Assembly: GCA_046330135.1 (NCBI GenBank) | Contig: JAXLTI010000004.1 | Span: forward strand, 1,174,394 to 1,238,393 | Origin: a bacterium | Lineage (GTDB): Bacteria; ARS69 | Length of the DNA stretch: 64,000 bases | Direction of reading: 5' to 3' | Program-made: the position numbers and the translations under genes | Shown: positions 2,301 through 64,000 of the stretch, piece after piece | Layout of the letters: each line of letters opens with the position of its first letter | Position numbering within the stretch: position 1 is the first letter of the stretch | The notes under the pieces: model-generated | Told to the model about the DNA's origin: nothing | Database searches by the model: none | What the model saw: the letters and a program-made list of their open reading frames with translations, nothing else

Positions 2301-2376
2301 GGGGCGGCGAGTGAGGTCGGGTGGCAGTCGACGGATTTCATGTGACGGCGATAGTGCGCGGTCCTCGCCGAAAGAG

Positions 2377-4229: not shown

Positions 4230-6140
4230 GTGAAGAAAGTCATCGTCGCTTGTGTCCTTGCCAGCCTCGTTGCGACATCGAGCGCCGTCGCGCAGCACCA
4301 GTACGGATGGACGATCAGCGCGAGTCAAACGGATCCCCATGCGAACACCGGCGGCATCGCTGCCGGGGGCCTCGGGCACCTCTACCTCTGGTACATGTGC
4401 AGCGTGGGTGGCGGCATGTCCGCTGCGGACTTCGGCCTACAATCCACGGGCGTGATCTTCGCCGGCTTCTCGCCTCTAAGCGGCTTCCTGAATGCGGGAT
4501 CGGGCTCAAACCTACTGCTCGCCGTAGGGGGTTGCCCCACGGGCCCGGTCGTCGCCGGCGACATCACCGTATTCTACTTCGGCGGCGCGGGCAGCATGTG
4601 CATCGTCAACTCCACTAACAACATCCGCGTGACGGTGGACTGCGAGTCGCCCAGTCCCTTGGCGTGGAACCTCCACGCCGTCGGCTGGGACGCGCTGGGC
4701 ACTCCGTCGTGCAGTGAGCCACTCTGCTCATCGCCCTGCAGTCCCGTGCTCACCGTTGGATCCGGGTCCACCTACGTCTACCGCGATTGCCCGGCCCAGG
4801 TGCCGATCACCATCACGGATTCCTGCGATCTAGGCGCCTTTCAATTTGACATGCCGTTCGACGATGCGACCCTCGACTTCACGAGCGCAGCGCTCGGTCC
4901 CTTCTTGGGCAGCACGGGTCGCAACGTGCTGGCGGTGGGCCCCCACGTGCTTCTGGGGCGCGTGAGTTACGGCGCCATCTCGTTCGGAGGCGCTGCCGGG
5001 CCGACGGGTGCCGGCAATCTGGCGACCCTCACGTTCACGAACCGCAACGGTGGCTCAACGCCGATCAGTGAGTCTCTGGACCTTCAGGCGATCGAAGTCC
5101 TCAACACGAGTGGAGTGCCGGTGACGGCGCTGTCTACGCCCGGCACTGTGAATCTGCGGAACTCGATCTACGCAGACTTCGACGCGAACTGCGAGGTCAC
5201 GGTCACCGACCTGATGCAGATCGCTACGCGGTGGGGAGCCGTGTCCGGGGATTCGCGCTACAACGCGCTCTATGATATCGACCTCGTCACCCCTGGAGAC
5301 TTCTGCGCGTCAGCGCCGGACGGCGACATCGACATCGTGGATATCCAGCTCGGAGCTTCGCGCTGGGCGGCGACGTGCGCGAGCGCGCCAGCGTGGCTCG
5401 CCACCTCGTCCATCGTTACGCCGGCGCCGGTCTCATTCGCTCTCGACCCGGACGTGGTGGCCGGTGCCGTCGGTCAGATCGCCACGGTCGGTATCCGGGC
5501 GAGCGGCGCACAGGACCTCGGGGCATTCGAGGCGCAGCTCGCGTTCGATTCCGATGTCGTTGAGGTGGTCGGCATTCGATCCGGAGGATTCCTGGAGCAC
5601 GGCCAGAACACTGCGGTGCCACTGATGGCGCCGCGGGGCGATGGCGTGCAGGCCGTGAGCGCTTTCAGCTTCGGTTCCGCGGAGGGTGCGGACGGCGAAG
5701 GCATCGTTGCCTACGTCGACCTTCGGCTGAAGACGTGTGGGGAGTCAGCGCTGCGGATCAAGGACGCGCGAGGCGTCACAAAGGCCGGAGCCGAGTGCCC
5801 CAGGGGTCAAACGCAGAACGGCGAGATCGTCTGCGCGACCGGGATCGAAGCGACGGCCGGCACCGCGCCTCGGGGTCTGCAGATCGCGCCGAACCCATTT
5901 GCCAGTCGGACAACGGTGTCGTTCGCGCTCGCGGCGCAGGAACACGTTCTCGTCGCCGTGTTCGACATCGGGGGGCGTCGCGTTCGCGAACTGGCCGACA
6001 ACGAGCTTGCGACCGGCGTGCACGCGCTCGCCTGGGACGGTCGCGATGACGCGGGGCGAGTGGTGCCCGCGGGCATCTACTTTGTGAGAGTGACTGGTCC
6101 GGTCACGCGGCACACGGAAAAGGTGGTCGTGTCCCGATAG
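4230..6140 (+). CDS. secreted multidomain protein: novel N-terminal QQYGW/DPHxNTGG domain, two cohesin-like domains, a dockerin-like Asp-rich repeat and a C-terminal FlgD-Ig/T9SS-type domain
   Basis: GTG start at 4230 with GAGGAG 9 nt upstream. The start is chosen by analogy to its paralogue at 57239 (signal peptide VKKVIVACVLASLVATSSAVA-QHQYGW). The table ORF starts at 4107, but that N-terminal extension has no signal and Arg-rich composition. Cohesin-like block CDLGAFQFDMPFDDATLDF. Dockerin-like DFDANCEVTVTDLMQIATRW. C-terminus PNPFASRTTVSFAL...VFDIGGRRVREL...WDGRDDAGRVVPAGIYFVRV matches the FlgD-Ig/Por-secretion tail pattern. Confidence 0.6.
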   Translation: MKKVIVACVLASLVATSSAVAQHQYGWTISASQTDPHANTGGIAAGGLGHLYLWYMCSVGGGMSAADFGLQSTGVIFAGFSPLSGFLNAGSGSNLLLAVGGCPTGPVVAGDITVFYFGGAGSMCIVNSTNNIRVTVDCESPSPLAWNLHAVGWDALGTPSCSEPLCSSPCSPVLTVGSGSTYVYRDCPAQVPITITDSCDLGAFQFDMPFDDATLDFTSAALGPFLGSTGRNVLAVGPHVLLGRVSYGAISFGGAAGPTGAGNLATLTFTNRNGGSTPISESLDLQAIEVLNTSGVPVTALSTPGTVNLRNSIYADFDANCEVTVTDLMQIATRWGAVSGDSRYNALYDIDLVTPGDFCASAPDGDIDIVDIQLGASRWAATCASAPAWLATSSIVTPAPVSFALDPDVVAGAVGQIATVGIRASGAQDLGAFEAQLAFDSDVVEVVGIRSGGFLEHGQNTAVPLMAPRGDGVQAVSAFSFGSAEGADGEGIVAYVDLRLKTCGESALRIKDARGVTKAGAECPRGQTQNGEIVCATGIEATAGTAPRGLQIAPNPFASRTTVSFALAAQEHVLVAVFDIGGRRVRELADNELATGVHALAWDGRDDAGRVVPAGIYFVRVTGPVTRHTEKVVVSR

Positions 6141-6221: not shown

Positions 6222-7739
6222 GTGGAGTCGGAAACCCGGAGCGGCAACGTGCGACGCGGATCAACTCTCTTCGGCTTCGGCCTACTCGGCTTCGTCGTCG
6301 TGGCCGCCGGCTCGCTATCGGTCTCCCTTGCCCAGACCCCTTGTACTCCCAAGGTGGTCGTACGCTTGCCCGCGTTCGTCGACTACGGCTGTCCCGTGTC
6401 AGCACCCGTGAGGGTCTCGTCCATATGCGACCTGGGAGGCTTTCAGTTCGACGTGGTGTTCGACGAAACGCTTCTCGAGTTCGACCGGGTCGAGCTCGGC
6501 CCCTTCCTGGGAAGTACCGGGCGCAGCGTGATGCAGCTCGGGCCTGTCGTTCAGGTCGGGAGAGTGCGTTACGGGGCGCTGTCGTTCGGAACCCAGGCCG
6601 GATCGACCGGATCCGGCGACCTTGCGACCTTGACCTTCATCAATCGGAATCCAGGGCCCACGCGTCGCGCCTCGACGGTCACGCTCGAAGCGCTTGAGCT
6701 GGTGGATACGGAAGGCCGAGCGATGGAGACCGAGAGCGCACCTGGAAGCGTGAGCCTTCTTCATCACATCTTCGGGGACTACGACGAGGACTGCGAGGTC
6801 ACGGTCGGCGATGCCATGCAGCTGGCCACCCGGTGGGGGGCACGTAGCGGAGACGAGCGCTATGATCCCACCTGTGACGTGGACCTTGCCTCTCCGGGAG
6901 AGTACTGCGCGTCCGTCCCGGACGGCGACATCGACATCGTGGACGTCCAACTGGTCGCGTCGCGGTGGTCAGCCACCTGCGCGACCAGCACATCGGTGAC
7001 GTCGAGTGCCGTGATCACCGCGCCGGTGTCGTTCTCCTTCGATCCTCCCTCCGTGGCGGGGAGCGAGGGAGGCCTCACCTCGGTGGCGATCGTCGCATCA
7101 GGTGCGGAGGATCTCGGTGCGTTCGAAGGTCGCTTGGTGTTCGACCCCGAGGTCGTGGAGATCACAGCGGTCCGTGGAGGTGAATTTCTGACTCAAGGAG
7201 GCAACGGCACGGTCTCCTTGAGCGATGCGCCGACGCAAGGTGCGGAGGCCGTCGGGGCCTTTAGCTACGGGCCGTCTGGAGGCGCCTCGGGTGCCGGCAC
7301 GGTTGCGTACGTGGACCTACGACTCAGAACCTGTGGCCGCTCGGAGTTGGTACTCGAGGATGTCCGCGTGGTGTCGAAAGACGGAAGAGAAGAGACGCTC
7401 GGCGCAACGTCGACCGGCGAGGTGGCGTGCGCCGCATCCGGAGTCGGACCGGGGGCAGCGGCTGCGCGCCACGGAATCTGGGCCACGCCAAGCCCATTCC
7501 GCGAGGGGACGACGATCTTCCTTGAGGTTCCGGCCGCGTCGAAGCTCCGCGTGGACGTCTTCGATGTATCAGGACGTCGCGTGCGTGGCCTCGTCGACTC
7601 GGAATTGCAGGCGGGAGTGCACCGTTGGCAGTGGAATGGCTGCGACGATGCGGGACGGCCTGTTCCGACCGGGATCTACTTCGTCAGAGGTCTCGACCCG
7701 ACCGCGTGCCGTACGCTTAAGGTCATCCGCACTCGGTGA
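6222..7739 (+). CDS. secreted cohesin/dockerin-like protein with C-terminal FlgD-Ig/T9SS-type domain (paralogue of the 4230..6140 C-terminal two-thirds)
   Basis: Signal peptide. CDLGGFQFDVVFDETLLEF cohesin-like block, DYDEDCEVTVGDAMQLATRW dockerin-like block, and C-terminus SPFREGTTIFLEV...VFDVSGRRVRGL...WNGCDDAGRPVPTGIYFVRG. Collinear with the upstream gene. Confidence 0.6.
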   Translation: MESETRSGNVRRGSTLFGFGLLGFVVVAAGSLSVSLAQTPCTPKVVVRLPAFVDYGCPVSAPVRVSSICDLGGFQFDVVFDETLLEFDRVELGPFLGSTGRSVMQLGPVVQVGRVRYGALSFGTQAGSTGSGDLATLTFINRNPGPTRRASTVTLEALELVDTEGRAMETESAPGSVSLLHHIFGDYDEDCEVTVGDAMQLATRWGARSGDERYDPTCDVDLASPGEYCASVPDGDIDIVDVQLVASRWSATCATSTSVTSSAVITAPVSFSFDPPSVAGSEGGLTSVAIVASGAEDLGAFEGRLVFDPEVVEITAVRGGEFLTQGGNGTVSLSDAPTQGAEAVGAFSYGPSGGASGAGTVAYVDLRLRTCGRSELVLEDVRVVSKDGREETLGATSTGEVACAASGVGPGAAAARHGIWATPSPFREGTTIFLEVPAASKLRVDVFDVSGRRVRGLVDSELQAGVHRWQWNGCDDAGRPVPTGIYFVRGLDPTACRTLKVIRTR

Positions 7740-7834
7740 GTTGAACTGGGGACAGGTTGCGAGCGCTCACGCACCTGCACTGGGGTTGCGTCGGGGGAGA
7801 AGGGCGACCACCGCGAAGGCGGTCCGCGCCATCT

Positions 7835-8647
7835 CTAGCCCCCCGAAGCCTCCAGGAAGTCCAGCACGACGTCGTTGAACCGCGCCGGGTCTTCCATGTT
7901 CGGGAGGTGCCCCACTCCCGGCATCACCAGGCGGCGGGCGCCGGGGACGTCGCGCTCGATGGTCTCGGCCACCCGCTGGAAGTCGGCGGCGTCTCGCTCG
8001 CCCACCACTGCGAGGGTGGGCACCTGGATCTCGGAAAGCCGCAGGATCGCCGGCGGTACGATGGGCTGTCCCCGATCGCGGTTCAGCCAGTGCCACCCCG
8101 AGTAGCCTTCGATCATGGCGCGCAGGCGCGGCGCCAGCTCCTTCCGCGCGAGCGCATTCGCCAGGAGCGGTGACGCGAGCCACTCGCGCCTCGCGGCATC
8201 GAGTCCCTCCTTCTTCGCGGTCTTCGACACGGCCCCGAGGGAATCCGTGAAGTCCTTCGACCACGCGAATCCCGCGAGGAAGGTGTCCACGAGCACGAGG
8301 GCCCGTGCGCGCCCCGGGTTCGAGGTGGCGAAGCCGATCACCGCGCCGCCGCCCATCGACAGCCCCACGAGCGCCGGCGAATCGATCTGCAGATGATCGA
8401 GCAGCGCCGCGAGGTCGTCCGCGTGGCGATACGGAACGTCGGCGGCGGGGGAGCGGCCGAAGCCGCGCAGGTCGTAGCGAACGACCGTGTAGCGCGGCGC
8501 AAAGGCGTCGACCTGGTCGTCCCACATCCTCCGGTCGAGCGAGAAGCCGTGGAGGAACACGACCGGCGGACCCTCGCCGGCCATCTCCCACGCGAGCGTG
8601 GTTCCGGCGACGGGCACGAAGCCGGTGCGAGGTTCGCGCGTCATCAC
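7835..8647 (-). CDS. alpha/beta hydrolase
   Basis: VVFLHGFSLD and the GLSMGG nucleophile elbow; 270 aa. Confidence 0.75.
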   Translation of the reverse strand: MMTREPRTGFVPVAGTTLAWEMAGEGPPVVFLHGFSLDRRMWDDQVDAFAPRYTVVRYDLRGFGRSPAADVPYRHADDLAALLDHLQIDSPALVGLSMGGGAVIGFATSNPGRARALVLVDTFLAGFAWSKDFTDSLGAVSKTAKKEGLDAARREWLASPLLANALARKELAPRLRAMIEGYSGWHWLNRDRGQPIVPPAILRLSEIQVPTLAVVGERDAADFQRVAETIERDVPGARRLVMPGVGHLPNMEDPARFNDVVLDFLEASGG

Positions 8648-8710
8648 GCGTTCCCCTCACCGACAGTCGGATCGTGTCGCTCGCCGCTCATTTCGCGGTC
8701 CTCTCGCCCC

Positions 8711-10441
8711 TCATTGCGCCACCGGCGCGCGCTGGTAGATGCGCACGAGGTCGATGCCCTTCAGCCCGAACGACTTCACGCCGTGATACGGACCGGCCTG
8801 CCCGTTCGTGAACAGCTTCCAGAGGAGACGCGAGGTCCAGTAGGCCTGATTCGTCTCGAGCACCCAGTAGTCCGCGCCCTGCGCGAAGGTGAAGTCGGCG
8901 CGCAGGAGACCGTAGCGCTGATACTCGCGGAGCGACGTGTACGACCCCGCGTTCCAGTCGATCGTGGCGCGCTCGGGGAGGTTCGCGTTGATCCAGCTCA
9001 CGACCTCCGGCGTCACCGCTTCCGCGCCCCAACAGGTGGACTCGAGGCCCGCCCCCTGAGGCGGCGGGAGTCCGGCGCGCGGTCCGTTCACGAACGCGTT
9101 GTAGTAGGCGAGCGGATAGGGCTGCACGGACGCCACGGCCCACACTCCGCATCCGAGAAGCGCCGCTCCCACGAGAAGCGGCGCCGCCTGCGCAACTCGA
9201 GGCGCGGGCGACCTGTCCGCGCGCAGCCATTTCTTCGCGCCGTCCATCAGCGTGGCGAAGCCGACCCCGGCGAGCACGCCCACGACGAGCGGAGCGAGGA
9301 GGAAGTGGCGAACGCCGTCGTAGACCGGAGAGCGCAGCGCCACGAACGGCAGCATCGACGCGGCGGCACCGAGGAGCAGCAGCGTCACGAGGCTGTGCCG
9401 GCGCCGCACGCGCACGCACGCGGCGGCCGCGAGCACCAGGAACGGAATGGGTGTGGTGAGCAAGAGCATCGCGGGCAGGTACGTGCGCGGCACGGTGTAG
9501 CCGTCGTACTGCGTCCCGAAGAAGTACACGGGGAAAGTGCGGTGGGCCAAGTGGAACTCGACGAGGTGGCGCAATCGGCCCACCGGGTCCGTCCAGAGAT
9601 ACGGCCACACGGCGTAGAAGAGAATCGCGGCGCCGATCGCGAGCGTCGCAGCGATGACCAAGGTCCGGCGCGGCGCCACGAGGAGGACCCAAGGCACGAT
9701 CGCCCCCACGAGGAAGAGCGCGTTCAGCTTCGTGGCCACCCCGAGGCCGAAGAGGGCGGCGAGCGGAAGGAGCCGTCGAGCGCCGAGGCGATCCGCGCGG
9801 GCCAGTCGCGCCACCCAGGCCAGCGTGGCCAGCTCGAGCGCCGCCACCGGCAAGTCGAGGCAGGCGAAGTGCGCGTGTCCGAAGACGTGCGGCATCGCGG
9901 GGAGCGCGGCGGCGGCGAAGAGCCCGGCGCTCGGGCCCGCCTCGGCCGCGGCCAGCCGGAACGCCGCGATCTGCGCGAGGAGCAGGAACACCAAGGCGCC
10001 CGCCCGAACGCCGGCGATCGGCCCGAGAGGTCCGGGGACCAGCGGGGCGCGGAGCGCGCCCGGGGAATCGACGCGCTCGTCGTAGTCCGCGCCGTACCGC
10101 TCCTGGGAAACGCCCGGCCCGAGCAGCGCATCGGAGGCCGCGTACACCCACTTCGCGAACGGCGGGTGCTCGACGTTGTACTCCCACACGGCGGGATCCG
10201 GAGCGCGGAGCGACGTCTCGCCCGCCGCCACCCGATGCACCCAGTCCTCGATCAGCCACGCGGCGCGGAAGTACCAGACCTCGTCCACGAACGTCCCGTA
10301 GTCGTCGAGCGTGGCGATCATGACGACTTGTGTCAGGAGGAGAATCGAGATGAGGACGATCATCGTCGCGCCGGGTCGCCGGCCAGCGAGGCGCGGAGCA
10401 TCGACGTGCGGAAGCGACGCGGCGTCGCCAGTCAGCTTCAT
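8711..10441 (-). CDS. glycosyltransferase family 39 (ArnT/PMT-like) polytopic membrane protein
   Basis: The table ORF extends to 10861 with an Arg/Ala-rich, non-hydrophobic N-terminus. Start moved to MKLTGD (10441), just before the first TM helix. Multiple TM segments, a DDYGTFVDEVWYF-type loop and PPFAKW are typical of GT-C/GT39. The stop of the upstream SGNH gene (10438) overlaps this start. Confidence 0.6.
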   Translation of the reverse strand: MKLTGDAASLPHVDAPRLAGRRPGATMIVLISILLLTQVVMIATLDDYGTFVDEVWYFRAAWLIEDWVHRVAAGETSLRAPDPAVWEYNVEHPPFAKWVYAASDALLGPGVSQERYGADYDERVDSPGALRAPLVPGPLGPIAGVRAGALVFLLLAQIAAFRLAAAEAGPSAGLFAAAALPAMPHVFGHAHFACLDLPVAALELATLAWVARLARADRLGARRLLPLAALFGLGVATKLNALFLVGAIVPWVLLVAPRRTLVIAATLAIGAAILFYAVWPYLWTDPVGRLRHLVEFHLAHRTFPVYFFGTQYDGYTVPRTYLPAMLLLTTPIPFLVLAAAACVRVRRRHSLVTLLLLGAAASMLPFVALRSPVYDGVRHFLLAPLVVGVLAGVGFATLMDGAKKWLRADRSPAPRVAQAAPLLVGAALLGCGVWAVASVQPYPLAYYNAFVNGPRAGLPPPQGAGLESTCWGAEAVTPEVVSWINANLPERATIDWNAGSYTSLREYQRYGLLRADFTFAQGADYWVLETNQAYWTSRLLWKLFTNGQAGPYHGVKSFGLKGIDLVRIYQRAPVAQ

Positions 10442-11526
10442 TTCCGAAGCGCGCCGAGCAGATCCGGACTGTCCATGACCCAGCGTGCGAGCGCCCGCCC
10501 GGCCACGTGATTGCCGCGCTCGGTGAAGTGCCCGTCCCGCGGCAGGTACAGCCCGGCGATGCGCTGCTCCGCGGTGACCACCGGCAGCAGATCGATCGAT
10601 GGGATGCCCGCCGCCGCCACGCGACGCTGCAGCTCGGTCTGCAGCGGGATGTCCTCCGGCCGCGTCCTGGCGAGCGCGTAGACGTCCGCGGGCAGCCACA
10701 CGACCGCGAAGCGCGCGCCCAGGCCGTCGGCGATCTGCTTCATCCGCAGGATCTGCTTCTCGGAGAGATCGAGGCCGCGCTGGAACTCGGCGGGCGTGAA
10801 CTGCTTGAGCGGGCGGGCGCTGGGCATGCCGTGGAGGTAGCGGACGCGGAAGGTCTCCCACGCGGAGGAGAAGAGCCGGTAGAGATGGCTCTCGCGGGCG
10901 AGCCAGCTTTCGCGGAAGTACTGCTGCGTGAACGAGTCGAAGAGGTAGCCGTCCCGTACGCCGTAGGGGGCCGGCGCTCCCAGGAGATCGGCCAGCAAGT
11001 TATCCGTGTAGTCGTTCGCGAAGAAGCCGAGCAGCACCACGTCGGGCGCCACCTTCGCACCGATCTCTTCGAGAAGCCCCGCCTCGGAGCCGGTGCCGTA
11101 CGCGTTCACGCCGCAGTTCACGGTCTGCACCTTCGGGCCGCCCAGCCGCTCCAGCTCCTGCCCGAGAACGTGGATCCATTCCTTGCCCTGCGGGCAGCCC
11201 CAGCCCCACGTGAACGAGTCGCCGAAGGCGGCGATGCGCGGTCGCGTCTTCGGCCCGAGCTCCGCTCCGCGCAGCCCCAGCGAGTTCAGGGAGAACTCCG
11301 TGACCACGCCGTCGCGCTCGATCTTCCCTGCGAAATTCGGCGCCGGCCGGAAGCCGGCCTTCGCGTCGGGCACGTACATGCCCTTCAGCACGTACGTGCG
11401 AATCTGCTCCTGCGAGGGCAGGGTCTGCGGCGCGAAGATCCGCACGGCGATCTCGGCGAGCGGCAGCATGACGAGCAGCGTGATCGGAACGAGCAGGATC
11501 TCCGCGAGCCGAATCCGGCGGGTCAT
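10438..11526 (-). CDS. SGNH/GDSL-family hydrolase, membrane-anchored
   Basis: Start at MTRRIRLAEILLVPITLL (TM anchor). GDSFTWGWG block I (GDS), LGFFANDYTDN block (DxxN-like). Tightly packed: its start is 2 bp from the upstream gene's stop. Confidence 0.65.
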   Translation of the reverse strand: MTRRIRLAEILLVPITLLVMLPLAEIAVRIFAPQTLPSQEQIRTYVLKGMYVPDAKAGFRPAPNFAGKIERDGVVTEFSLNSLGLRGAELGPKTRPRIAAFGDSFTWGWGCPQGKEWIHVLGQELERLGGPKVQTVNCGVNAYGTGSEAGLLEEIGAKVAPDVVLLGFFANDYTDNLLADLLGAPAPYGVRDGYLFDSFTQQYFRESWLARESHLYRLFSSAWETFRVRYLHGMPSARPLKQFTPAEFQRGLDLSEKQILRMKQIADGLGARFAVVWLPADVYALARTRPEDIPLQTELQRRVAAAGIPSIDLLPVVTAEQRIAGLYLPRDGHFTERGNHVAGRALARWVMDSPDLLGALRK

Positions 11527-11527
11527 C

Positions 11528-13711
11528 TCACGCTCCGGCCGGGAACAGGGACGCGCGGCGACCGAAGATCGCGACCGCGGCCAGGAGCAGCAGGCCTGCG
11601 ATGAGCAGGAATCTCCTCGAAGGATCCGGGCGGAAGCGCAGCGCCACGTCGTGCTCGCCCGGCGCGAGCGGCACGCCGACGAAGCTCGGCATGAGCTGCC
11701 TCGTGGCGGCCGGCGCACCGTCGACCGTGGCGCGCCACAGCGGGTGATACGTCATCTTCAGCACGAGATCCCCCGGCCGATCGACGCGCACGCGTGCAAG
11801 GAAGTCCTCGCCCTCGCGCCGCACCGACAGCACTTCGCCCACGGGCGAGGCCGGCGGCGAGGCCGGCGGGAAGCGGAAGTCCACGTCGTCCGCCGCGATC
11901 CCTTCACCCTCGCCAGGGCCTCCTTCCTCGCGGAGATGCACGGCCGGGTGAATGCCTCGCGCGGGCTGGTCGCTCCGGAGCCACGCGGCGTGGAGCCTGG
12001 AGACGTTGCGCTTGGCCACGTCGAGACGGTACGGCACGTCGACGAGCTGCACCAGGCCCGGACCGTCCACGCCGTACACGCAGAAGCGACCTTGCTGCGC
12101 GAGCGGGTGCGCGAAGGGCGGCACGTGCAGTCCCGCGGGGGCGATGATCCGGCGCACGCCGAGCGCGCGGTAGTTCGAGGGATCCCCCTCGTCGAATGCG
12201 TCGTGGAGATCCGAGTTCAACGACTCCATGTGGTAGAGGTAGCCGAGCCCGTCCATCTCGTGGAACGCGAACCACGCGTACACCGGCACCCAGCCCACGA
12301 GGAACGTCCCGCCCCACGGCGTATTCAGCCCGCCGAGCCCCGCGTAGGTGCGGCCCTCGCGGTCGCCGGCGGCGATCGAGAGCGCCCGGTCCAGCGCCGG
12401 ACCCTCCGCGGCGTAGCCGGCAGCCGACTCGCGAACCAGCTCGGCGTTGCGGAGGAGATACGACGTGCGCTCCGCCAGCAGCGGAACGAACGCGAGCAGA
12501 GCGAGCGCACCGGCCCACGCGATCCCCGCCGGGCGCCGACTCGCGAAGCGCAGGGCGCCGCCGAGGAAGACCCCGGCGAGCATCGTGCCGAACACGTGCA
12601 CGCCGAACACCGCGCGCGAGTAGTGGAAGCCCGATCCCAGCGGCACGAGCTTCAAGAGATCTCCCCACGTGGGGCGCCCGAAGTAGAGAAGCAGGAAGAA
12701 CACGAAGAGCGCGAGCAGCGTCCGCTCGCCCTCGCGCCGGACGCGGATCGCAGCGAGCACGACGCCCGCGCCGACCAGCCCGGTGAGTACCGGCAACGGT
12801 CCGAAGGAGCGGCCGGCGATCGTCACGATCCGCGTGAAGTCGAAGATCTCGCCCTGGACGAGCCAGGGCAGGATGACGCCCGCTCCGAAGCTGTTGTACT
12901 TCCAGGTGGGCACGAGCGTGCTCACGTTGTACCAGGCGAAGTCGCGGACGATGGGCAGCAGCATCCACGAGCAGCCGGCTCCCGCGACGAGCCCGAGGAC
13001 GGCGAGACGCAGGAGGCGACGCGGCGCCTCGCGCGGCGTGACGAGCGCAATCACTCCGCCCGCGAGGCAAGCCATCGTGCCGAGCGCGAGGTGCGAGAGA
13101 AACGTGATCGCCAGGAGGACGGCGGCCACGCTCCAGCTCCGCCCGGTGCGCAGGGCCGTGGCGATCCACGCGACGGTGAGCGGGAAGACCCACCCGCCGA
13201 CCGCCTGCGTGTACTCGCCGAGCCCCTGCCACACGTAGCTCTCGAGATCGTTGCCGTGCAGGTAGTTCGTCTTCACGAGCGGCGCCAGCGCGGCCGCGGC
13301 CACCGCCTCGACGCGCCCGAACCCCAGCCGCCGCGTCGCGACGTACACCGGCACGGGGAGCGTGCCGATGGCCGCCCACTGCATCAGCTGGAAGCACCGG
13401 ACGAGGGAGACCCCGTGGCCGAGGAGCTTCCAGAGCCCGATCACGAGGAAGTGGGGGAGGCTCTGGTAGTAGTGGAAGACGGGGAAGCCGAGGCACCAGG
13501 TGGAGATCCAGGGGTCGAGCACGCTCTGCCCGCGCAGGCGCGCGCTCGCGAGCGAGCGGATGAGGCCGAAGTGCAGCACGTCGTCGTTGAGGAACGGAAA
13601 CGGATGACGCACCTGCACGAACAAGAGGCCCAGCAGCCACGCGCACGCGGCGGCGACGCATGCCGCCGCCGCGCGCGCGCCGCGAGATCGCCCCGCGGGC
13701 CCCTCGGTCAT
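11528..13711 (-). CDS. large polytopic membrane protein (GT-C-like/YfhO-like) with a C-terminal soluble domain
   Basis: 727 aa starting at MTEGPAGRS. There are at least 12 predicted TM helices, followed by a roughly 230-aa soluble tail. ATGA overlap with the M16 peptidase stop at 13708. Family assignment is tentative. Confidence 0.55.
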   Translation of the reverse strand: MTEGPAGRSRGARAAAACVAAACAWLLGLLFVQVRHPFPFLNDDVLHFGLIRSLASARLRGQSVLDPWISTWCLGFPVFHYYQSLPHFLVIGLWKLLGHGVSLVRCFQLMQWAAIGTLPVPVYVATRRLGFGRVEAVAAAALAPLVKTNYLHGNDLESYVWQGLGEYTQAVGGWVFPLTVAWIATALRTGRSWSVAAVLLAITFLSHLALGTMACLAGGVIALVTPREAPRRLLRLAVLGLVAGAGCSWMLLPIVRDFAWYNVSTLVPTWKYNSFGAGVILPWLVQGEIFDFTRIVTIAGRSFGPLPVLTGLVGAGVVLAAIRVRREGERTLLALFVFFLLLYFGRPTWGDLLKLVPLGSGFHYSRAVFGVHVFGTMLAGVFLGGALRFASRRPAGIAWAGALALLAFVPLLAERTSYLLRNAELVRESAAGYAAEGPALDRALSIAAGDREGRTYAGLGGLNTPWGGTFLVGWVPVYAWFAFHEMDGLGYLYHMESLNSDLHDAFDEGDPSNYRALGVRRIIAPAGLHVPPFAHPLAQQGRFCVYGVDGPGLVQLVDVPYRLDVAKRNVSRLHAAWLRSDQPARGIHPAVHLREEGGPGEGEGIAADDVDFRFPPASPPASPVGEVLSVRREGEDFLARVRVDRPGDLVLKMTYHPLWRATVDGAPAATRQLMPSFVGVPLAPGEHDVALRFRPDPSRRFLLIAGLLLLAAVAIFGRRASLFPAGA

Positions 13712-33860: not shown

Positions 33861-34389
33861 GCAAGCTCCTCGGGAGGCGGGCTCCCATGATGCCGCGGAT
33901 CGCCCTCGGCGGCCACTCGGCACACCGTTGTGCGAATGAGCCCCCGATGGAGGGGCCCCTCTTCGCAGTCCACCCGAAAGCGGGGCAGCGGGTGAACACC
34001 GCGTGGCCCGGCGGTGCGATGGCGACCGCTAACCACCGGCCGCCCGCGCCGCTGCGAGGCCTGTGCTCCTTCCGGCCTCGCGAGCCGCCCCGATGGCCGG
34101 AAATGACCCAGCCCCCGCACCCCTTCCGGCGCGGCGATTGCTTTATCTCAGCGCGGCCCGAGCGCCTCCCGATGATTCTGCTGGGCGCCCGGGCCGAGCG
34201 CCCCCACCGAGCGAGCAAGATGCGAGACGCGTTCTGCGAAACGGCCGAATGTCAGTCGGTGACAGATGCGAATGGTGCGCAGGACGCGGCGGGTGTCTAC
34301 TTCGCGCGGGCTCGAAGCGGGTTGCGAGAGCTGCACCGTCGAACACGTGCTCGTGCCGCTCTCCCAATCCGCTGGGAAGGAGACGCGCG

Positions 34390-36525
34390 ATGCGCACGAT
34401 GAACTGGTGCTCGATTCTGCTGCCGCTCGTGACCGCAACGGCCTTCAGCGCTGGCTCAGCGCAGGCGGCTGAGCTCGATCCTCCCGCGATGGAGCGCACC
34501 TGGCCGGTGGTCCCGGTGGATCCGTCGGGGCACGTGAACCTCGCGGCGATCGTCGTGACCACGGAAGACGACGTCGTGGCGTTCGACGACGTCAGCCACA
34601 AGCTCCTCAAACTGACCTCGTCCGGAACGCTTCTCGACACGTGGGCCGTTCCGGAGTCACTCGAGGTCCAGAAGCTCGACACGGGCCCGCAGGGCTCGGT
34701 GTACGTGGGTTGCTCGGGCCGCATCCTCGTGTTCGACCACGACGGCGGGATTCTCTCCGACCGCGCGATGCGCTGGAGGGACTTCGCGGTGGGCGGTGCA
34801 GGCGAGATCTACCGCATCGATCCGGATCTGCGGGACGTCATCGTGGTCTCGACGCGCGACGGCACCTTCCTGCGCGAGTGGGATCTTCCCCTCAACCCAT
34901 GGGGTCTGCCCTACCGCCCTCTCGCGATCGCCGCAGACCCCGACGGGGTGATCGCGTTCTGCGACACGATGGATGGGCCGCACTGCGTCGTGTCGTGGAC
35001 TTTCTCCGGCGTGCTGCGCGACTCCAGGACCGTGCCTCTCGATGAGTGGCACTCGTTGACGTCCGGTCGCGCCGGGACTCTGTACTTCTTCGAGAACGCC
35101 ACACCGTCCTTGGAGGCCATGGATGGTTCCCTGATCCATCTGGCGTGGTGGTCGGACCTGTTCGAATTACCGTGGGACTACTACGTCAGTCCCTCGGGGG
35201 ACTCCGGCGGGCGCACCTACCTCGCGGAGACCCTCGACGATCTCACCGGAGCCCGAGTCCTGGTCTTCGCGCCCATCGGCCCCGGGGCAATCCTCGAGGC
35301 GGACCACCCGGGCGCCCCCTACTGGGTCGACGGCGTCCAATACCTGGGGAATCACCGCTTCGATTGGACGCCGGGGACCGTCCACACCGTGACGGCCGCG
35401 CCTGAGTTCGAGACCTCGCCGGGGACGCGCGAATCCTTCCTTTCGTGGTCCGACGGCGGCGATGCGCAACACGACGTCACCGTGCCCTCGCACGCGTTCG
35501 GTCTGCGTGGCCTCTTCCGCACCGAACGTCTCGTCTCCACCGTCGTGGACTCCGGCGGCACGGCGACGGCGAGCGCCTGGGTCGCCGACAGCACCCAGGT
35601 GACGCTCTCCGCGCACGAAGCGCCCGGCTACCGATTCGTGAAGTGGGGAAACCCGGACTCCGTCGGTTGGAAGCCGGGCGACGTGCTCACGCCGGAGTGG
35701 ACGCACACGGTGACTCATCCGGAATCATGGGAGGCGTGCTTCGTCCGGCAGGGACTCGTGCTTTCGATCAGCGCGAGCGCCACGGATCCGAGCGCGAACA
35801 CCGCCGCGCCCGCGATGGGCCCGCGCCAGCTCTACTTGTGGGCGAAGTGCTTGGACCACGGAATCTCCGCGCTCGAAGCCGACGTGACGGGCTCGCTGCA
35901 GGCGGGTGGGTTCATCCCGGCGAACGGCGTGCTGAACCTTGGCGAAGGACCGAATCTCCTCTGCGCGATCCCCGGCTGCCCGATCGGGGCGGAAGTGAAC
36001 CACCTGCTGGGATCGTGGTGGGTGGCCGATGTCGGCGGCGACTTCTGTCTCACGCGGTCGGCGGCGAACGGCGTGCTGGTCGTGGTGGAATGCCCGTCTC
36101 AGTTCCCGCAAACGTTCACGCCGACGATCGTGGGGTTCTCGTCGATCGGGGATCCCTGCGTGACCGGTCCGCTCTGCGGTGCGGATCCCGACTCGCTGCC
36201 GTTGGATCCGAACGACGTCCCGGTGGTCGCGTTGTCGTCGGTGCCGAGCGTTCTCATGCTCTCCTCGCGCGGGAACCCCTTCCGAGGTTCGATCGAGCTG
36301 GCGCTGGATCTTCCGACGAACGCGCGTGCGGAGCTTCGCATCTTCGACGTGGCCGGGCGACTCGTACGCACCCTCCTTGCGGACAACGTGACCGCGGGCC
36401 GGCGCGCGATCTCGTGGGACGGCCGCGACGCGAGCGGCGCGGTGACGCCTTCGGGAATCTACTTCGCGCGCCTCGACGCGGCGGGCGAGCGCCGGACGCT
36501 GAAGCTGGTGAGGGTGTCTCGGTGA
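34390..36525 (+). CDS. secreted protein with an NHL/beta-propeller-like N-terminal region, an internal copy of the DPHxNTGG domain and a C-terminal FlgD-Ig/T9SS-type domain
   Basis: ATG at 34390 with GGAAGGAG RBS and a signal peptide. The internal segment DPSANTAAPAMGPRQLYLWAKC...GPNLLCAIPGCPIGAEVN...GVLVVVEC aligns with the domain in 4230 and 57239. C-terminus NPFRGSIELALDL...IFDVAGRLVRTL...WDGRDASGAVTPSGIYFARL. Confidence 0.6.
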   Translation: MRTMNWCSILLPLVTATAFSAGSAQAAELDPPAMERTWPVVPVDPSGHVNLAAIVVTTEDDVVAFDDVSHKLLKLTSSGTLLDTWAVPESLEVQKLDTGPQGSVYVGCSGRILVFDHDGGILSDRAMRWRDFAVGGAGEIYRIDPDLRDVIVVSTRDGTFLREWDLPLNPWGLPYRPLAIAADPDGVIAFCDTMDGPHCVVSWTFSGVLRDSRTVPLDEWHSLTSGRAGTLYFFENATPSLEAMDGSLIHLAWWSDLFELPWDYYVSPSGDSGGRTYLAETLDDLTGARVLVFAPIGPGAILEADHPGAPYWVDGVQYLGNHRFDWTPGTVHTVTAAPEFETSPGTRESFLSWSDGGDAQHDVTVPSHAFGLRGLFRTERLVSTVVDSGGTATASAWVADSTQVTLSAHEAPGYRFVKWGNPDSVGWKPGDVLTPEWTHTVTHPESWEACFVRQGLVLSISASATDPSANTAAPAMGPRQLYLWAKCLDHGISALEADVTGSLQAGGFIPANGVLNLGEGPNLLCAIPGCPIGAEVNHLLGSWWVADVGGDFCLTRSAANGVLVVVECPSQFPQTFTPTIVGFSSIGDPCVTGPLCGADPDSLPLDPNDVPVVALSSVPSVLMLSSRGNPFRGSIELALDLPTNARAELRIFDVAGRLVRTLLADNVTAGRRAISWDGRDASGAVTPSGIYFARLDAAGERRTLKLVRVSR

Positions 36526-57238: not shown

Positions 57239-57790
57239 ATGAAGCGTATCCTGACGATTGCTCTCGCTCTGTTGGTGATCGCGATGCCGGCGTTTGCCCA
57301 GCAGCAGTACGGCTGGACGGTCAGCGCCAGCCAGACCGACCCGCACATGAACACCGGCGGCCTCGCTGCTGGCGGGCTCGGGCACCTGTACCTCTGGTAC
57401 TTCTGCAACGCCCCGATGGGAATGTCGGCTGCGGACATGGGCCTGGCGGCCACGGGCGTCGTCTTCGCGGGCTTCTCGCCGTTGAACGGCTTCCTGAACG
57501 CGGGCTCCGGCCAGAACCTGCTGCTCGCGGTCGGTGGCTGCCCGAACGGCCCGGTCGCGGCGGGTGACATCACCGTCTTCTACTTCGGTGGCGCTGGCAG
57601 CATGTGCATCGTCAACTCGAACAACAACATTCGTGTGACGGTGGACTGCACCTCCCCCACGCCGAGCGCGTGGGACATCCACGCTGTCGGTTGGGATGCC
57701 CTCGCGGCGCCCGCCTGCAGCGAAGTGCTCTGCCCGCCCACGGCCGTCGAGCCTCAGAACTGGGGCGCGATCAAGAGCCTGTACCGCTAA
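57239..57790 (+). CDS. small secreted protein: standalone QQYGW/DPHxNTGG domain with a W-x-x-IK-x-LYR C-terminal tail
   Basis: ATG 57239 with GGAGG RBS. Signal peptide MKRILTIALALLVIAMPAFA. About 60% identical over about 150 aa to the N-terminal domain of the 4230..6140 protein. Ends EPQNWGAIKSLYR. Confidence 0.65.
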   Translation: MKRILTIALALLVIAMPAFAQQQYGWTVSASQTDPHMNTGGLAAGGLGHLYLWYFCNAPMGMSAADMGLAATGVVFAGFSPLNGFLNAGSGQNLLLAVGGCPNGPVAAGDITVFYFGGAGSMCIVNSNNNIRVTVDCTSPTPSAWDIHAVGWDALAAPACSEVLCPPTAVEPQNWGAIKSLYR

Positions 57791-60606: not shown

Positions 60607-61212
60607 ATGGCCCGCGTGTCCGCGTCCCGGGCCGTCGCCGCGCTGGCGGCTCTCGGCCTGGCCGGTTGCATCACCTCTCCCGATCAGGCGCCCAAGCCGC
60701 ACGATCTGCCCGGCTACACCGACCCCTCGGCGTTCGTGCAGGCCTACGCCGCTTCGCTGCAGGAAAGAAACCTGGCCAACTACCGGAAGCTCCTCGCGGA
60801 TGAGTTCGAGTACTTCCCGAGGGCCGCGGATCTCCCCATTCCCTGGCTCGACGGCGACTCCTGGGGCTACGCCGACGAGCTCGGCATGATCGGACACATG
60901 ATGGACTCCGCGTTCGTCCCGAAGGACCCGGACTGCGGCGCCGTTCGCGCGATGTACGCCGAGCTCACGGTGTCCTCTCGGCGCGACGTCGGCGACGGAA
61001 CGATCGAGGTCGGGACCGTCGGTTTGATCCGCGTCGTCTGGGGCGCGGACGGCGGGGGGGTCGCGAACGCGCGCTTCGTCTTCGATCTCGCGAGGGGCGA
61101 GGACGGGTATCTCCGCCTGCGCGCCATGCACGAGCTCCCGCTGTTCCGGGAGGGATCCCTCGAGGTCACTCCCCGGACCTGGGCCGGTCTCAAGGCGGGC
61201 TACCGCGAGTAG
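60607..61212 (+). CDS. NTF2/SnoaL-like lipoprotein, member 1 of a tandem paralogue array; C-terminal W-x-x-LK-x-GYRE
   Basis: Lipobox LGLAGC. Family blocks Y.DP.A.V.AYA..L..R.L..Y..LL.D.F.YFP....LP.PWL.GDSWG...ELGMIGHM. Ends TPRTWAGLKAGYRE. Confidence 0.6.
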   Translation: MARVSASRAVAALAALGLAGCITSPDQAPKPHDLPGYTDPSAFVQAYAASLQERNLANYRKLLADEFEYFPRAADLPIPWLDGDSWGYADELGMIGHMMDSAFVPKDPDCGAVRAMYAELTVSSRRDVGDGTIEVGTVGLIRVVWGADGGGVANARFVFDLARGEDGYLRLRAMHELPLFREGSLEVTPRTWAGLKAGYRE

Positions 61213-61232
61213 TTGGAAGGGGAAGCGTCCCG

Positions 61233-61820
61233 ATGTCGCGCCCGTGCGTTCGAATCGCGAGCATCGCCGGCCTGCTGGGGCTCTTCGCGGCCGGATGCCT
61301 CACGGATTCCGACAAGCCGTCGGGCGCGGTGGCGGGCACCACGGATCCGGCGACGCTCGTGGCGAGGCACGCCGCGGCTCTCTCGCACCGCGACTACGAT
61401 GCCTATGCCGCGCTTCTCAGCGACGACTTCATGTTCTACCCGGGGTCCCTCGCCATCCTGGACACGAGCGACCTCCAGGACTTCCCCTGGCTGACCGGGG
61501 AGGGCGCGTTCGCCTGGGACCGCATCGGCGAGCTCGGCATGATCGGGCAGATGTTCGCGACGCCGAACACGTCGATCGGAGCCGCGTTCGAGGTGCTGAG
61601 CATTCGAGGCACGTTGGACGCGGGCTTCGACGTCGACACACACGCGACCTTCAGCGTGGCCTCGCGCACTTTCAGTGCCGAGGCGGACACGCGCCTCGTC
61701 TTGCGCCTCTCGAAGGCGCGCGACGGCTACCTGCGCATCCACTCGATCCGCGAGATCCCGCCGGAGCTCTTCTACGGGGGAGTGACCTGGGCTGCGATCA
61801 AGATGAGGTATGAGCCATGA
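61233..61820 (+). CDS. NTF2/SnoaL-like lipoprotein, member 2
   Basis: Lipobox FAAGC. Blocks TDPATLVARHAAALSHRDYDAYAALLSDDFMFYP and FPWLTGEGAFAWDRIGELGMIGQMF. Ends VTWAAIKMRYEP. Confidence 0.6.
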   Translation: MSRPCVRIASIAGLLGLFAAGCLTDSDKPSGAVAGTTDPATLVARHAAALSHRDYDAYAALLSDDFMFYPGSLAILDTSDLQDFPWLTGEGAFAWDRIGELGMIGQMFATPNTSIGAAFEVLSIRGTLDAGFDVDTHATFSVASRTFSAEADTRLVLRLSKARDGYLRIHSIREIPPELFYGGVTWAAIKMRYEP

Positions 61821-62947
61821 CCACCGCTCGCAACCTGCGCATCCTCCTGGGGCTGGGCGCCGCGCTCGCGTCGGCGGCGTGCGGGCACGACGACGGACCC
61901 ACGGCGCCGCCGCACTTCACGGAGCCCGCCGCGCTGGTCGGGGGCTACGCGACGGCCTTCACGGCGCGAAACGCCGGCGCATGCGTGGATCTGCTCGAGG
62001 CCGCGAGCGGTACGAGCGGCGGCTTCCGTTTCTTCCCGAAGAGCGAGGATCTTCCGGCCTTGGATTGGCTCGCCGGCGACAGCTGGGGCTACGAGCGCGA
62101 GGGAGGGATCCTCTCCAACATGCTCGACCGGACCTACGTGAGCGAGGCGGCGGCCGCCGCCGGGTTCACCGGCGTGGGCACGCTGACGCTCGAGACGGAC
62201 TCGACCACCCCGCTCGCGGGGCACGAGTACGACGTCCTCGCCTCGGGGACTTTCGCGATGAAGCGCGCCGCCCTTGCCGACGTTCTCTATCCCGTCGGGC
62301 TGCGCTTCGTGCTGGCGACGTCGACGGACGGCACCCTCGTGATCCGCGAGATGCACGAGCTGTCCATGGGGATGGACCGCTCGCCGGGCGCGCTGAGCTG
62401 GGGGACGGTGCAGAGCTGGTACCGCGAGCCGCCGCCGCGGTACACGGATCCGACCGCGCTGATCGCGGCGCACGCCGCCGCGCTCACGGATCGCGACCTC
62501 GAAGACTACGCGAGCCTCCTCGACGGCAGCTTCCAGTACTTCCCGCAGCCCCAAGACCTCAGCGATCTTCCGTGGATGACGGGCTCGTCGTGGGGGCGCT
62601 CGGACGAGCTTGAGATGATCCGCCACATGTTCGACCCGAGCTACGAGCCCATGGGCTCCCACGCGGGGAGCATCGACTCGATCCACGCGACCTTCCAGGT
62701 TCTCCACGTCCAGCCGGACTCCATCCTCGGTGGGACCCAGGTCTCGACGAGCGCCGTTCTTCAGGTGATGTACGACGCGTCGAGCGGCGCGGCGGCCAAT
62801 GTCCGATTCGACTTCCACCTCGTGTCGCACGACGGGCATCTCCTCATCTCGGAGATCCGCGAGCTGCCGCTCCACGCGCCGGCCCGTGACGAGTTGCCGG
62901 TCGAGCCGCAGACCTGGGCGAACATCAAGGCGCTGTACCGAGAGTGA
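61817..62947 (+). CDS. NTF2/SnoaL-like lipoprotein, member 3 (internally duplicated: two family domains in one protein)
   Basis: Lipobox LASAAC. ATGA overlap with member 2. First repeat ends ALSWGTVQSWYRE and runs directly into the second repeat PPPRYTDPTALIAAHAAALTDRDL...; the second ends PQTWANIKALYRE. Confidence 0.6.
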   Translation: MTTARNLRILLGLGAALASAACGHDDGPTAPPHFTEPAALVGGYATAFTARNAGACVDLLEAASGTSGGFRFFPKSEDLPALDWLAGDSWGYEREGGILSNMLDRTYVSEAAAAAGFTGVGTLTLETDSTTPLAGHEYDVLASGTFAMKRAALADVLYPVGLRFVLATSTDGTLVIREMHELSMGMDRSPGALSWGTVQSWYREPPPRYTDPTALIAAHAAALTDRDLEDYASLLDGSFQYFPQPQDLSDLPWMTGSSWGRSDELEMIRHMFDPSYEPMGSHAGSIDSIHATFQVLHVQPDSILGGTQVSTSAVLQVMYDASSGAAANVRFDFHLVSHDGHLLISEIRELPLHAPARDELPVEPQTWANIKALYRE

Positions 62948-62991
62948 CGGGCGTCGCCGAGCCGGAGTGCAGTGAACAGGAGGCAACCCAT

Positions 62992-63615
62992 ATGACCACC
63001 CCTCGTACCCTGAGTCTCTTCCTGGGGCTGACTGCCGCGCTCGCGTTGGCGGCATGTCACGACGACACCTCGACCGGTCCTCCGACCCACTCCGGTCCGC
63101 CGAGGTACAACAATCCGAACGCGTTGATCGACGCGCACGCGTCGGCGCTCACCAACCGCGATCTCGCGGCCTACACGAACCTCCTCGACGAGGGCTTCCA
63201 GTACTTCCCGCAATCGGAAGACCTCGCGGACTTGACTTGGCTGACGGGCGACTCCTGGGGACGAGCGGACGAGCTGGGGATGATCGGCCACATGTTCGAC
63301 CCGGACTTCCAACCTGCCTCGGGCATGCATGCGGGGAGCGTCGACTCGATCGACGCGACCCTCACCGTCGTGACGGTCCAGCCGGCGCCCACCGGCGTCG
63401 GGTACGTGGTCACGACGCACGCCGTGATCCGAGTGATGTACGACGCCTCGAACGGCGCCGCGACCGACGTCCGGCTCGAGTTCCACCTCGTGCCGCACGA
63501 CGGGTACTTCCTCATCTCGGAGATCCACGAGATGCCGCTTCACGCGCCGGCGCTGTCCGGGATGCGGGCGGTCGAGCCGTCCTCCTGGGGGCAAGTCAAG
63601 TCGCTGTACCGCTAG
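62992..63615 (+). CDS. NTF2/SnoaL-like lipoprotein, member 4
   Basis: ATG 62992 with AGGAGG RBS. Lipobox LALAAC. NPNALIDAHASALTNRDLAAYTNLLDEGFQYFPQSEDLADLTWLTGDSWGRADELGMIGHMFD. Ends PSSWGQVKSLYR. Confidence 0.6.
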   Translation: MTTPRTLSLFLGLTAALALAACHDDTSTGPPTHSGPPRYNNPNALIDAHASALTNRDLAAYTNLLDEGFQYFPQSEDLADLTWLTGDSWGRADELGMIGHMFDPDFQPASGMHAGSVDSIDATLTVVTVQPAPTGVGYVVTTHAVIRVMYDASNGAATDVRLEFHLVPHDGYFLISEIHEMPLHAPALSGMRAVEPSSWGQVKSLYR

Positions 63616-63635: not shown

Positions 63636-64000
63636 ATGACCGACGCCAGACGGCTGGGCCACTTCCTGGGATGGAGCGCCGCGCTCGTGCTGACGGCGTG
63701 TCGGTGGCGGCCGACCGCTCTTCTCCTCCGCCGAGTTTCGCGACGGTGCAGGCCTGGTACCGTCACCCTCCGCGGAGGTACTCCGATCCGAACGCGCTGA
63801 TCGACGCGCACGCGTTTGCCCTCACGAACAAGATGTTCGACGAATACGTAGGCCTCCTCGACCCGTCCTTCGCGTACTTCCCGCCGCCCTGGGACGTCCC
63901 GGATCTCCCCGTCCGGCTCGCCTTGCGCACGCACGGCCGCCGGCGTTCGCGTCTCGACGGGCGGTGTGCCCCGGCGCCCCGAAAGGCCAAACCCTTGCTA
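63636..64000 (+). pseudogene. degenerate fifth copy of the lipoprotein family (frame-shifted), running off the window
   Basis: The lipoprotein-like N-terminus (MTDARRLGHFLGWSAALVLTAC) is in frame 0 and stops at 63800. Family sequence continues in another frame from about 63722 (SFATVQAWYRHPPRRYSDPNALIDAHAFALTNKMFDEYVGLLDPSFAYFPPPWDVPDLP), then diverges where W[LM]TGDSWG is expected. This is either a pseudogene or local sequence errors. Confidence 0.3.

Follow-up and report, generated by a model that had tools for sequence, protein, structure and literature searches.

Five genes in a 64,000 bp stretch of contig JAXLTI010000004.1, part of the bacterial metagenome-assembled genome (MAG) GCA_046330135.1, encode exported proteins that end in variants of one short tail with the consensus W-G-x-[IV]-K-x-L-Y-R. 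Four of these genes form an array of NTF2-like lipoproteins near the end of the stretch (referred to below as the window), and the fifth, 57239, named after its first position, encodes a secreted protein with a cohesin-like fold. Here we show that the tail is a modular element located at the extreme C-terminus of many unrelated proteins that carry Sec signals. On balance, sequence comparison favours the view that it is a sorting or attachment tag of Sec-exported proteins that is bound by a conserved protein of the cell envelope.

A C-terminal tail shared by two protein families of the window

All six reading frames of the 64 kb window were searched with the regular expression W..[ILVM][KRQ]..Y. 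This resulted in exactly six matches, which are the six copies named in an earlier note on this DNA; no further match was present. Five of them are C-terminal, at most two residues away from the stop codon, and the sixth (62399-62422, SWGTVQSWYRE) is internal and lies at the domain junction of array member 3. Residue shuffles of the six frames gave on average 0.31 matches, and 0.017 C-terminal ones, against the six and five observed. Array members 1, 2 and 3 end in TWAGLKAGYRE, TWAAIKMRYEP and TWANIKALYRE, respectively, and canonical ends are present in member 4 (SWGQVKSLYR) and in 57239 (NWGAIKSLYR). The codons differ among the five tails, and three different stop codons are used, which indicates that the tail is conserved at the protein level.

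The earlier note had described the tail as common to all four intact array members, with an invariant Trp, Lys and Tyr-Arg. All four array copies are indeed C-terminal, and Trp, Lys and Tyr are present in all five tails, but the Arg is absent from member 2, which ends in Tyr-Glu-Pro instead of Tyr-Arg. The note had also placed the motif at 60607-63615, a region that does not include the 57239 gene. The array thus carries off-consensus variants, the canonical tail being found in the window only in member 4 and 57239; the Leu, which is near-invariant elsewhere, is missing from members 1 and 2 as well. Counting the five of the window together with eight that are located on another contig, the source MAG has at least 13 genes with the tail. 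Apart from a contig of the same sample, no locus matched the window, and the relatives of its tail-bearing genes suggest an Eisenbacteria-like source.

The tail is appended to two unrelated folds

The AlphaFold model of 57239 contains a beta-sandwich (residues 23-165) with a predicted local distance difference test score (pLDDT) above 93. Its top Foldseek matches in the Protein Data Bank (PDB) are type I cohesins (E 5e-5 to 1e-3, TM 0.5-0.66). Since the Pfam Cohesin model does not match 57239, its classification as cohesin-like (a nine-stranded jelly-roll) holds at the level of the fold only. The core of array member 4 (residues 40-181), modelled with high confidence, is an alpha+beta cone of the NTF2-like superfamily, for which the CaMKII hub and SnoaL/NTF2-like proteins are the top PDB matches (E ~1e-6); the matches of the array bodies to Pfam DUF4440/SnoaL are weak and below threshold. 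Thus, in agreement with the earlier note, 57239 is unrelated to the lipoproteins, and a last strand shared by two NTF2-like folds fails as an explanation for the tail of 57239, which is not NTF2-like.

In both models the tail is located outside the fold, as a predicted short helix on a flexible linker. The tail of 57239 (residues 166-183) has a pLDDT of ~50, with a helix at 173-182. In member 4 (62992-63612, model mc2f45e06c60c) the NTF2-like cone is followed by a disordered linker (pLDDT below 50) and a short helix (199-204), and the last seven residues reach a pLDDT of ~92; according to this model the tail helix may dock onto the protein's own NTF2 cone. That the tail is appended, and not part of the fold, is also indicated by homologues that lack it, since the lipoprotein homologues P0004-6 end right after the last strand, just before the position of the tail. 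As had also been noted before, the 4230 paralogue of 57239, which is 71% identical in the shared domain, continues into further domains: cohesin and dockerin-like modules, and then a FlgD_ig/Por_Secre_tail C-terminal domain of the type used by the type IX system of secretion (T9SS).

When the 57239 family was assembled from matches over the whole protein, the tail was found at the end of 56 of its 64 members; W, G, K, L, Y and R are conserved in it to at least 90%, compared with an overall identity of ~40%. Proteins P0008-P0016 and P0054 are grouped with 57239. In the same MAG, a tandem array of seven 57239 paralogues (U0167_00490 to U0167_00520), all ending in the tail, is present on another contig of 1.3 Mb.

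The conserved module is a linker followed by a predicted helix

When positions unconstrained by the search were considered, conservation was found to run from about -10 (relative to the Trp) to the C-terminus. The motif proposed previously is real, but the conserved module is longer than that motif and comprises ~18-20 residues with the consensus [C]-x-[P/A]-[V/T]-[P/S]-[V/A/T]-[E/R/Q]-x-x-[T/S]-W-G-x-[I/V]-K-[small]-L-Y-R-COOH. Its conserved upstream positions are [P/A] at -8, [V/T] at -7, [P/S] at -6, [V/A/T] at -5, [E/R/Q] at -4 and [T/S] at -1. The Trp is followed by Gly in 120 of 122 tails of the wider family among the matches listed. Positions 0, 1, 3, 4, 6, 7 and 8 are conserved, position +2 is free and position +5 accepts small residues only. 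Variation restricted to +2 and +5 corresponds to the periodicity of a helix; a strand would show an alternating pattern. Plotted on a helical wheel, L, I, Y and W occupy one face, with K and R on its flanks. The hydrophobic moment of the helix amounts to 0.46-0.55, the mean hydrophobicity is ~0, and there is no hydrophobic run. The module is therefore predicted to consist of an extended linker and a two-turn amphipathic helix. An alternative offered in the earlier note, that the tail is the terminal beta-strand of an interaction module, finds no support in the conservation pattern or in the AlphaFold models, both of which indicate a helix.

A Cys is present at -8 to -13 from the Trp in 28 of 65 unrelated families (tails of loci L001-L120), against 15% expected, i.e. 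about three times more often than by chance. This residue could form a disulfide staple at the end of the domain, or be part of the recognised module.

Internal copies that arose by gene fusion have lost residues that are invariant elsewhere. This applies to TWTDIKILFAE of locus L061 and to SWGTVQSWYRE of array member 3, in which the otherwise invariant Lys is replaced by Gln and the Leu by Trp.

The tail is widespread among uncultured bacteria

One genome for each of 185,579 species was scanned at the DNA level with the pattern TGGGSNNNNRTCAAGNNNCTSTACCG, which specifies W-[GA]-x-[IV]-K-x-L-Y-R in GC-rich codons and does not demand a stop codon. This identified at least 120 loci, with 132 matches listed. 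Among these 132, a stop codon directly follows the Arg in 105 cases, comes after one more residue in 11 and after two or three residues in six, and is thus located within three codons in 122. The few listed matches far from a stop codon, which belong to Isosphaeraceae, Hydrogenedentes, Patescibacteria and a betaproteobacterium, have the appearance of background due to chance. Those at a C-terminus come from MAGs that their submitters labelled Eisenbacteria, Krumholzibacteria, Latescibacteria, 'Gemmatimonadota', 'Fibrobacteraceae' or 'bacterium'. Complete Eisenbacteria chromosomes encountered in the analysis are OZ244990.1, OZ245046.1, OY970178.1 and OZ244210.1. Related loci with a total of 840 kb contain 154 copies of the core motif at a C-terminus and five internal ones, and the reversed-sequence control gave no match.

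A scan of metagenome contigs with AT-rich codons yielded 19 matches, 15 of which are true C-terminal tails, most of them on proteins with a recognisable signal peptide. These tails stem from contigs of 29-43% GC and from three of 54-63% GC, showing that the tail is not limited to high-GC lineages. Loci L121-L124, L126, L131-L133 and L137 represent a single family of ~235-258 residues that ends in ...HPR..D......[ST]SWG[KR]IKSLYR. Its genes are located on contigs of very low GC content (29-43%), the three longer of which show conserved synteny with an adjacent gene for a small acidic membrane protein. A DNA-level repeat or gene conversion was considered as the cause of the tail and ruled out, since the codons differ and the motif persists from 29 to 72% GC.

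The tails of the window proteins and of their whole-protein homologues were also combined in a profile of 30 positions, with which 1.84 billion cluster representatives were searched exhaustively. This returned 888 representatives (of clusters at 50% identity) with E<=0.001. In 128 of the 145 best new matches the motif is located at most three residues from the end, and 69 of the 81 full-length matches have a signal peptide. The bodies of these proteins, a sample independent of the DNA scan, fall into 24 unrelated clusters. A 42-residue tail profile run against a word-indexed protein database collected 150 candidates and returned six CHRD fragments.

No model in Pfam or NCBIfam 20.0 covers the tail, and isolated tail peptides gave no match even at E<=10; a search of the PDB with the consensus tail peptide was likewise negative at E<=10. 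The searchable literature contained no description of the tail, and literal motif strings matched unrelated plant TPR/FKBP sequences or text from outside biology.

Carriers are unrelated proteins with signal peptides

A recognisable Sec signal is present in 102 of 125 carriers from the sampled loci, and 11 of these have a lipobox. When the same scoring rule was applied to complete genes, a signal peptide was found for 86 of 102 tail genes (84%) versus 140 of 412 neighbouring genes (34%), an enrichment with an odds ratio of 10 (p=1e-20). After removal of the tail, the carriers form at least 66 clusters that are unrelated by BLAST. The tail is therefore combined with many different folds and, as the earlier note had anticipated, is neither confined to one paralogue family nor distributed independently of signal peptides. 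Together with the failure of a shared strand to explain the tail of 57239, these results support the note's interpretation of the tail as a recognition tag, for which sorting would be a plausible role.

Pfam domains identified in carriers include Beta_helix, LTD, CHRD, NHL, FG-GAP, CAP and CBM96, in addition to the cohesin-like and NTF2-like bodies. NCBIfam models identified choice-of-anchor W, V, R and X domains, and homologues of the PEP-CTERM protein ScyF, of rhombosortase- and myxosortase-dependent M36 peptidases, and of one MYXO-CTERM family. In other lineages, choice-of-anchor families carry PEP-CTERM, MYXO-CTERM or T9SS signals. The tail thus occupies the place that known sorting signals have in other phyla.

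The tail and the T9SS domain behave as alternatives

Proteins with an ending of the FlgD_ig/Por_Secre_tail type are common in the genomes that have the tail, and the window encodes three of them. At the tail-gene loci we identified 159 open reading frames (ORFs) with a tail and, using a hidden Markov model (HMM) derived from the loci, 46 with a T9SS-type C-terminal domain, and none with both. FlgD_ig and Por_Secre_tail likewise gave no match in sets of 114 and 102 carriers. Homologous bodies with either one or the other ending were observed in three cases, two of which are pairs of adjacent genes (L076 and L119), and in addition for the window pair 57239/4230. The absence of ORFs with both endings, together with these homologous bodies, indicates that the tail and the T9SS domain behave as alternatives. 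The 6222 protein, which also contains cohesin domains and has a T9SS-type C-terminal domain, shows that the alternative C-terminal signal is in use in the same genome.

The T9SS domain (type A, TIGR04183/PF18962; here a FlgD_ig-like variant) resembles the tail in being a C-terminal module of Sec-exported proteins of the FCB group, found on many unrelated cargo families, in the same genomes and sometimes on homologous bodies. It differs in that it is a folded, Ig-like domain of 70-100 residues, whereas the tail consists of ~20 residues that form a linker and one predicted short helix. The two have no HMM similarity, and tail peptides did not match the domain at E<=10. The signals of the PEP-CTERM/exosortase, LPXTG/sortase, GlyGly-CTERM/rhombosortase and MYXO-CTERM systems are also short C-terminal tags and occur on choice-of-anchor families. 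In these signals a signature motif is accompanied by a hydrophobic transmembrane helix and by a basic cluster, whereas the tail has no hydrophobic segment; none of the NCBIfam CTERM models matches it. The distinction from LPXTG, PEP-CTERM, GlyGly-CTERM and the T9SS domain that was drawn in the earlier note is therefore confirmed. Envelope proteins with the beta-signal of the beta-barrel assembly machinery likewise bear a short motif at their extreme C-terminus, but this motif has an aromatic end and alternating hydrophobic residues and forms the last strand of a beta-barrel. The tail, by contrast, terminates in Arg, shows the periodicity of a helix and is attached to soluble folds. The tail appears to be a new kind of C-terminal tag.

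Function of the tail

Of the nine helix positions, seven hardly vary among unrelated folds and very different base compositions, which argues for recognition by a specific protein rather than for partitioning into a membrane. Sorting or attachment is favoured by the variety of bodies, the restriction to proteins with signal peptides, the choice-of-anchor carriers and the mutual exclusion with the T9SS domain. On this basis we propose the following scheme. A carrier would be exported by Sec, and its signal peptide would be removed or the protein would be lipidated. The tail would then hang off the folded domain, and a conserved envelope protein would bind it with the helix in a groove, probably with a contribution from the nearby free C-terminus. 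Binding would determine the destination of the protein, most likely by handing it over to outer-membrane export or surface display, in parallel with, and as an alternative to, the T9SS C-terminal domain that the same genomes use.

Several results weigh against this proposal. Three of the four array tails are off-consensus, with Ala at the position occupied by Gly in the wider family. About 20% of the tails among the matches listed have one to six extra residues past the Arg, showing that a free carboxylate at exactly that position is not obligatory. The NTF2-like lipoprotein P0077 ends in four tandem tails, P0093 has two copies 25 residues apart, and the two-domain NTF2 protein P0211 has kept an intact internal tail; such arrangements would be easier to understand for a module that acts in binding or avidity than for an export signal used once. 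Lipoproteins, which are already anchored, make up ~10% of the carriers and include the array in the window, and most carriers have no known domain at all. No partner gene emerged when 3,243 ORFs were clustered by BLAST and 96 flanking genes were surveyed with Pfam, and all genomes with the tail are those of uncultured organisms. The flanking genes encode T9SS-domain proteins (at 32-33 of the at least 120 loci), tetratricopeptide repeat (TPR) proteins, most of which accompany a single carrier family, as well as ABC ATPases, methyltransferases and sulfatases.

A protein reader would also be needed if the tail were a docking peptide, in which case the outcome would be assembly instead of routing. 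The tail would then be a minimal dockerin-like ligand for non-covalent assembly on surface scaffolds, either the cohesin-rich 4230 and 6222 proteins or NTF2-like lipoproteins. Like dockerins, it is a C-terminal module that many unrelated secreted proteins have in common. Multi-module proteins that contain cohesins and are T9SS-anchored are encoded in the genome, and the fold of 57239 is itself cohesin-like. The tandem tails of P0077 and P0093 suggest avidity, and the confidently modelled end of member 4, despite its disordered linker, hints at docking on an NTF2 cone. A cellulosomal dockerin (PF00404), however, is a duplicated Ca-binding F-hand module of ~70 residues, whereas the tail contains no Ca-binding repeats, and the Dockerin HMM matched neither carriers nor tail peptides. 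As docking would also leave unexplained how Sec-only proteins cross the outer membrane, we consider it unlikely. Attachment might instead be direct, without any protein reader, if the amphipathic helix with its W/I/L/Y and K/R residues inserted in the leaflet interface or bound to an anionic polymer such as lipopolysaccharide. Anchors of this kind are known from PBP5/6, with their C-terminal helices, and from MinD, with its membrane-targeting sequence. The hydrophobic moment and near-zero hydrophobicity given above, the location of Trp/Tyr and Lys/Arg at the edges of the hydrophobic face, the tolerance of extra residues after the Arg and the existence of tandem copies would all fit. On the other hand, the near-invariance of the seven helix positions, which include the Gly, together with the small-residue position, in unrelated families and in lineages of 29-72% GC is atypical for such anchors and far exceeds what membrane partitioning needs. 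In addition, the helix has only ~9 residues and a low net hydrophobicity, and conservation includes the upstream P-V-P-V-E, so that a direct anchor seems quite improbable.

The remaining alternatives have still less in their favour. A covalent tether to peptidoglycan was considered because Braun's lipoprotein of E. coli (Lpp) ends in ...K-Y-R-K, and its Tyr-Arg residues matter for attachment. Here an L,D-transpeptidase would link the invariant Lys of K-x-L-Y-R to the wall, and the lipoprotein array would staple the outer membrane to it. Both systems concern envelope proteins, some of them lipoproteins, with a basic, helical C-terminus that contains Tyr-Arg and a conserved Lys; in the tail this Lys does not vary even in searches that left the position free, and K(i), Y(i+3) and R(i+4) would be adjacent in the helix. 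In Lpp, however, the Lys is terminal and confined to one small coiled-coil family, whereas in the tail, found on many folds, it is five residues from the end (position -5), and although Tyr-Arg is present, no terminal Lys follows it: Arg is the last residue in 105 of the 132 matches listed (~80%). Moreover, ~90% of the carriers are not lipoproteins, their cargo consists of typical surface or extracellular modules, and no link with an L,D-transpeptidase was apparent among the nearby genes surveyed. We therefore regard such a tether as very unlikely. Neither an L,D-transpeptidase nor a PDZ protease or sortase-like candidate was present among the 3,243 clustered ORFs and 96 flanking genes. A signal for turnover or translation, with the tail either as a degron read by a tail-specific (PDZ) protease or as an arrest peptide of the nascent chain that acts during termination, would agree with the extreme C-terminal position, and a conserved Trp ~9 residues before the stop codon recalls arrest peptides of the TnaC type. 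A degron on dozens of unrelated, strongly conserved secreted families is, however, hard to rationalise, the stop codons vary, extra residues as well as tandem and internal copies occur, and the tail is charged, unlike the non-polar ends favoured by Prc/Tsp; the probability of such a role is accordingly slight. Finally, the tail would have no function of its own if it were the last element of a shared fold or a match due to chance or composition. Given that the window families differ in fold with the tail outside both cores, that homologues without the tail exist, that shuffled and reversed controls gave close to zero matches and that at least 66 unrelated families are involved, this possibility is practically negligible.

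The lipoprotein array and other features of the window

The positions of the genes and tails in the window are listed in Table 1. All four intact array members have lipoboxes. Members 2 and 3 share the sequence ATGA at 61817-61820, in which the stop codon of the former and the start codon of the latter overlap; this indicates translational coupling inside the array. The fifth member is a pseudogene with an intact lipoprotein signal (...LVLTAC); its frameshift is followed by a tail or junction relic, ATVQAWYRHPPRRY (ATVQAWYRH), and by the first part of an NTF2-like domain, after which the frame shifts a second time. Just past the end of the window begins a sixth gene for an NTF2-like lipoprotein, which is more divergent.

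The 4230 and 6222 proteins combine cohesin domains with a dockerin-like ('flexitail') stretch, an architecture that suggests a surface-anchored scaffold in an uncultured bacterium of the FCB group. At positions 1-11800 of the window, sulfatase-type, PMT_2/ArnT-like glycosyltransferase, TPR and S-adenosylmethionine-dependent methyltransferase genes adjoin those of secreted proteins with a T9SS domain or a tail. The same neighbourhood recurs in L024, L025, L055, L074, L083 and L104, all of which belong to one tail-carrier family.

Table 1. Tail-carrying genes, their tails and related genes in the window.
Feature	Position	Strand	Sequence or remark
57239, secreted protein, cohesin-like beta-sandwich	57239..57790	+	signal peptide of the signal peptidase I type (SPI)
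57239, canonical tail module	57731-57787		CPPTAVEPQNWGAIKSLYR
Array member 1, NTF2-like lipoprotein	60607..61212	+	lipobox LAGC
Member 1, off-consensus tail	61156-61209		...VTPRTWAGLKAGYRE
Array member 2, NTF2-like lipoprotein	61233..61820	+	lipobox AAGC
Member 2, tail, most degenerate of the array	61764-61817		...GGVTWAAIKMRYEP
Array member 3, two fused NTF2-like domains	61817..62947	+	
Member 3, internal tail relic at domain junction	62396..62428	+	SWGTVQSWYRE
Member 3, C-terminal tail	62891-62944		...VEPQTWANIKALYRE
Array member 4, NTF2-like lipoprotein	62989..63615	+	NCBI U0167_10610
Member 4, canonical tail	63562-63612		...AVEPSSWGQVKSLYR
Fifth array member, frameshifted pseudogene	63637..64000	+	continues in L141 3263-4085
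4230, paralogue of 57239 without tail	4230..6140	+	same N-terminal domain as 57239
6222, second cohesin-containing protein	6222..7739	+	T9SS-type C-terminal domain
Third window protein with C-terminal domain of the FlgD_ig type	34063..36525	+	

Implications

It is conceivable, if somewhat short of probable, that Eisenbacteria and allied uncultured lineages possess a hitherto unrecognised sorting system, operating alongside the T9SS, whose cargo signal is the W-G-x-[IV]-K-x-L-Y-R tail. If so, no earlier short C-terminal signal for the sorting of Sec-exported proteins in diderm bacteria would share its lack of both a transmembrane helix and a folded domain, and the tail would have its own receptor, translocon or attachment enzyme still to be discovered. 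Earlier C-terminal sorting signals led to new envelope machinery, namely sortases, exosortases, rhombosortases and the T9SS; in the present case the signal precedes the machine. The tail supports a search for a co-distributed reader by phylogenetic profiling and by structure prediction of peptide-protein complexes, and the tail peptide can serve as bait for biochemistry on wastewater and sediment communities, in which these organisms are abundant. A model of the tail would also improve annotation, as Pfam and NCBIfam have none. Being sharply defined and easily searched, the motif marks hundreds of mostly unannotated secreted proteins in phyla without cultured members, and the tail defines a subset of the secretome in these lineages.

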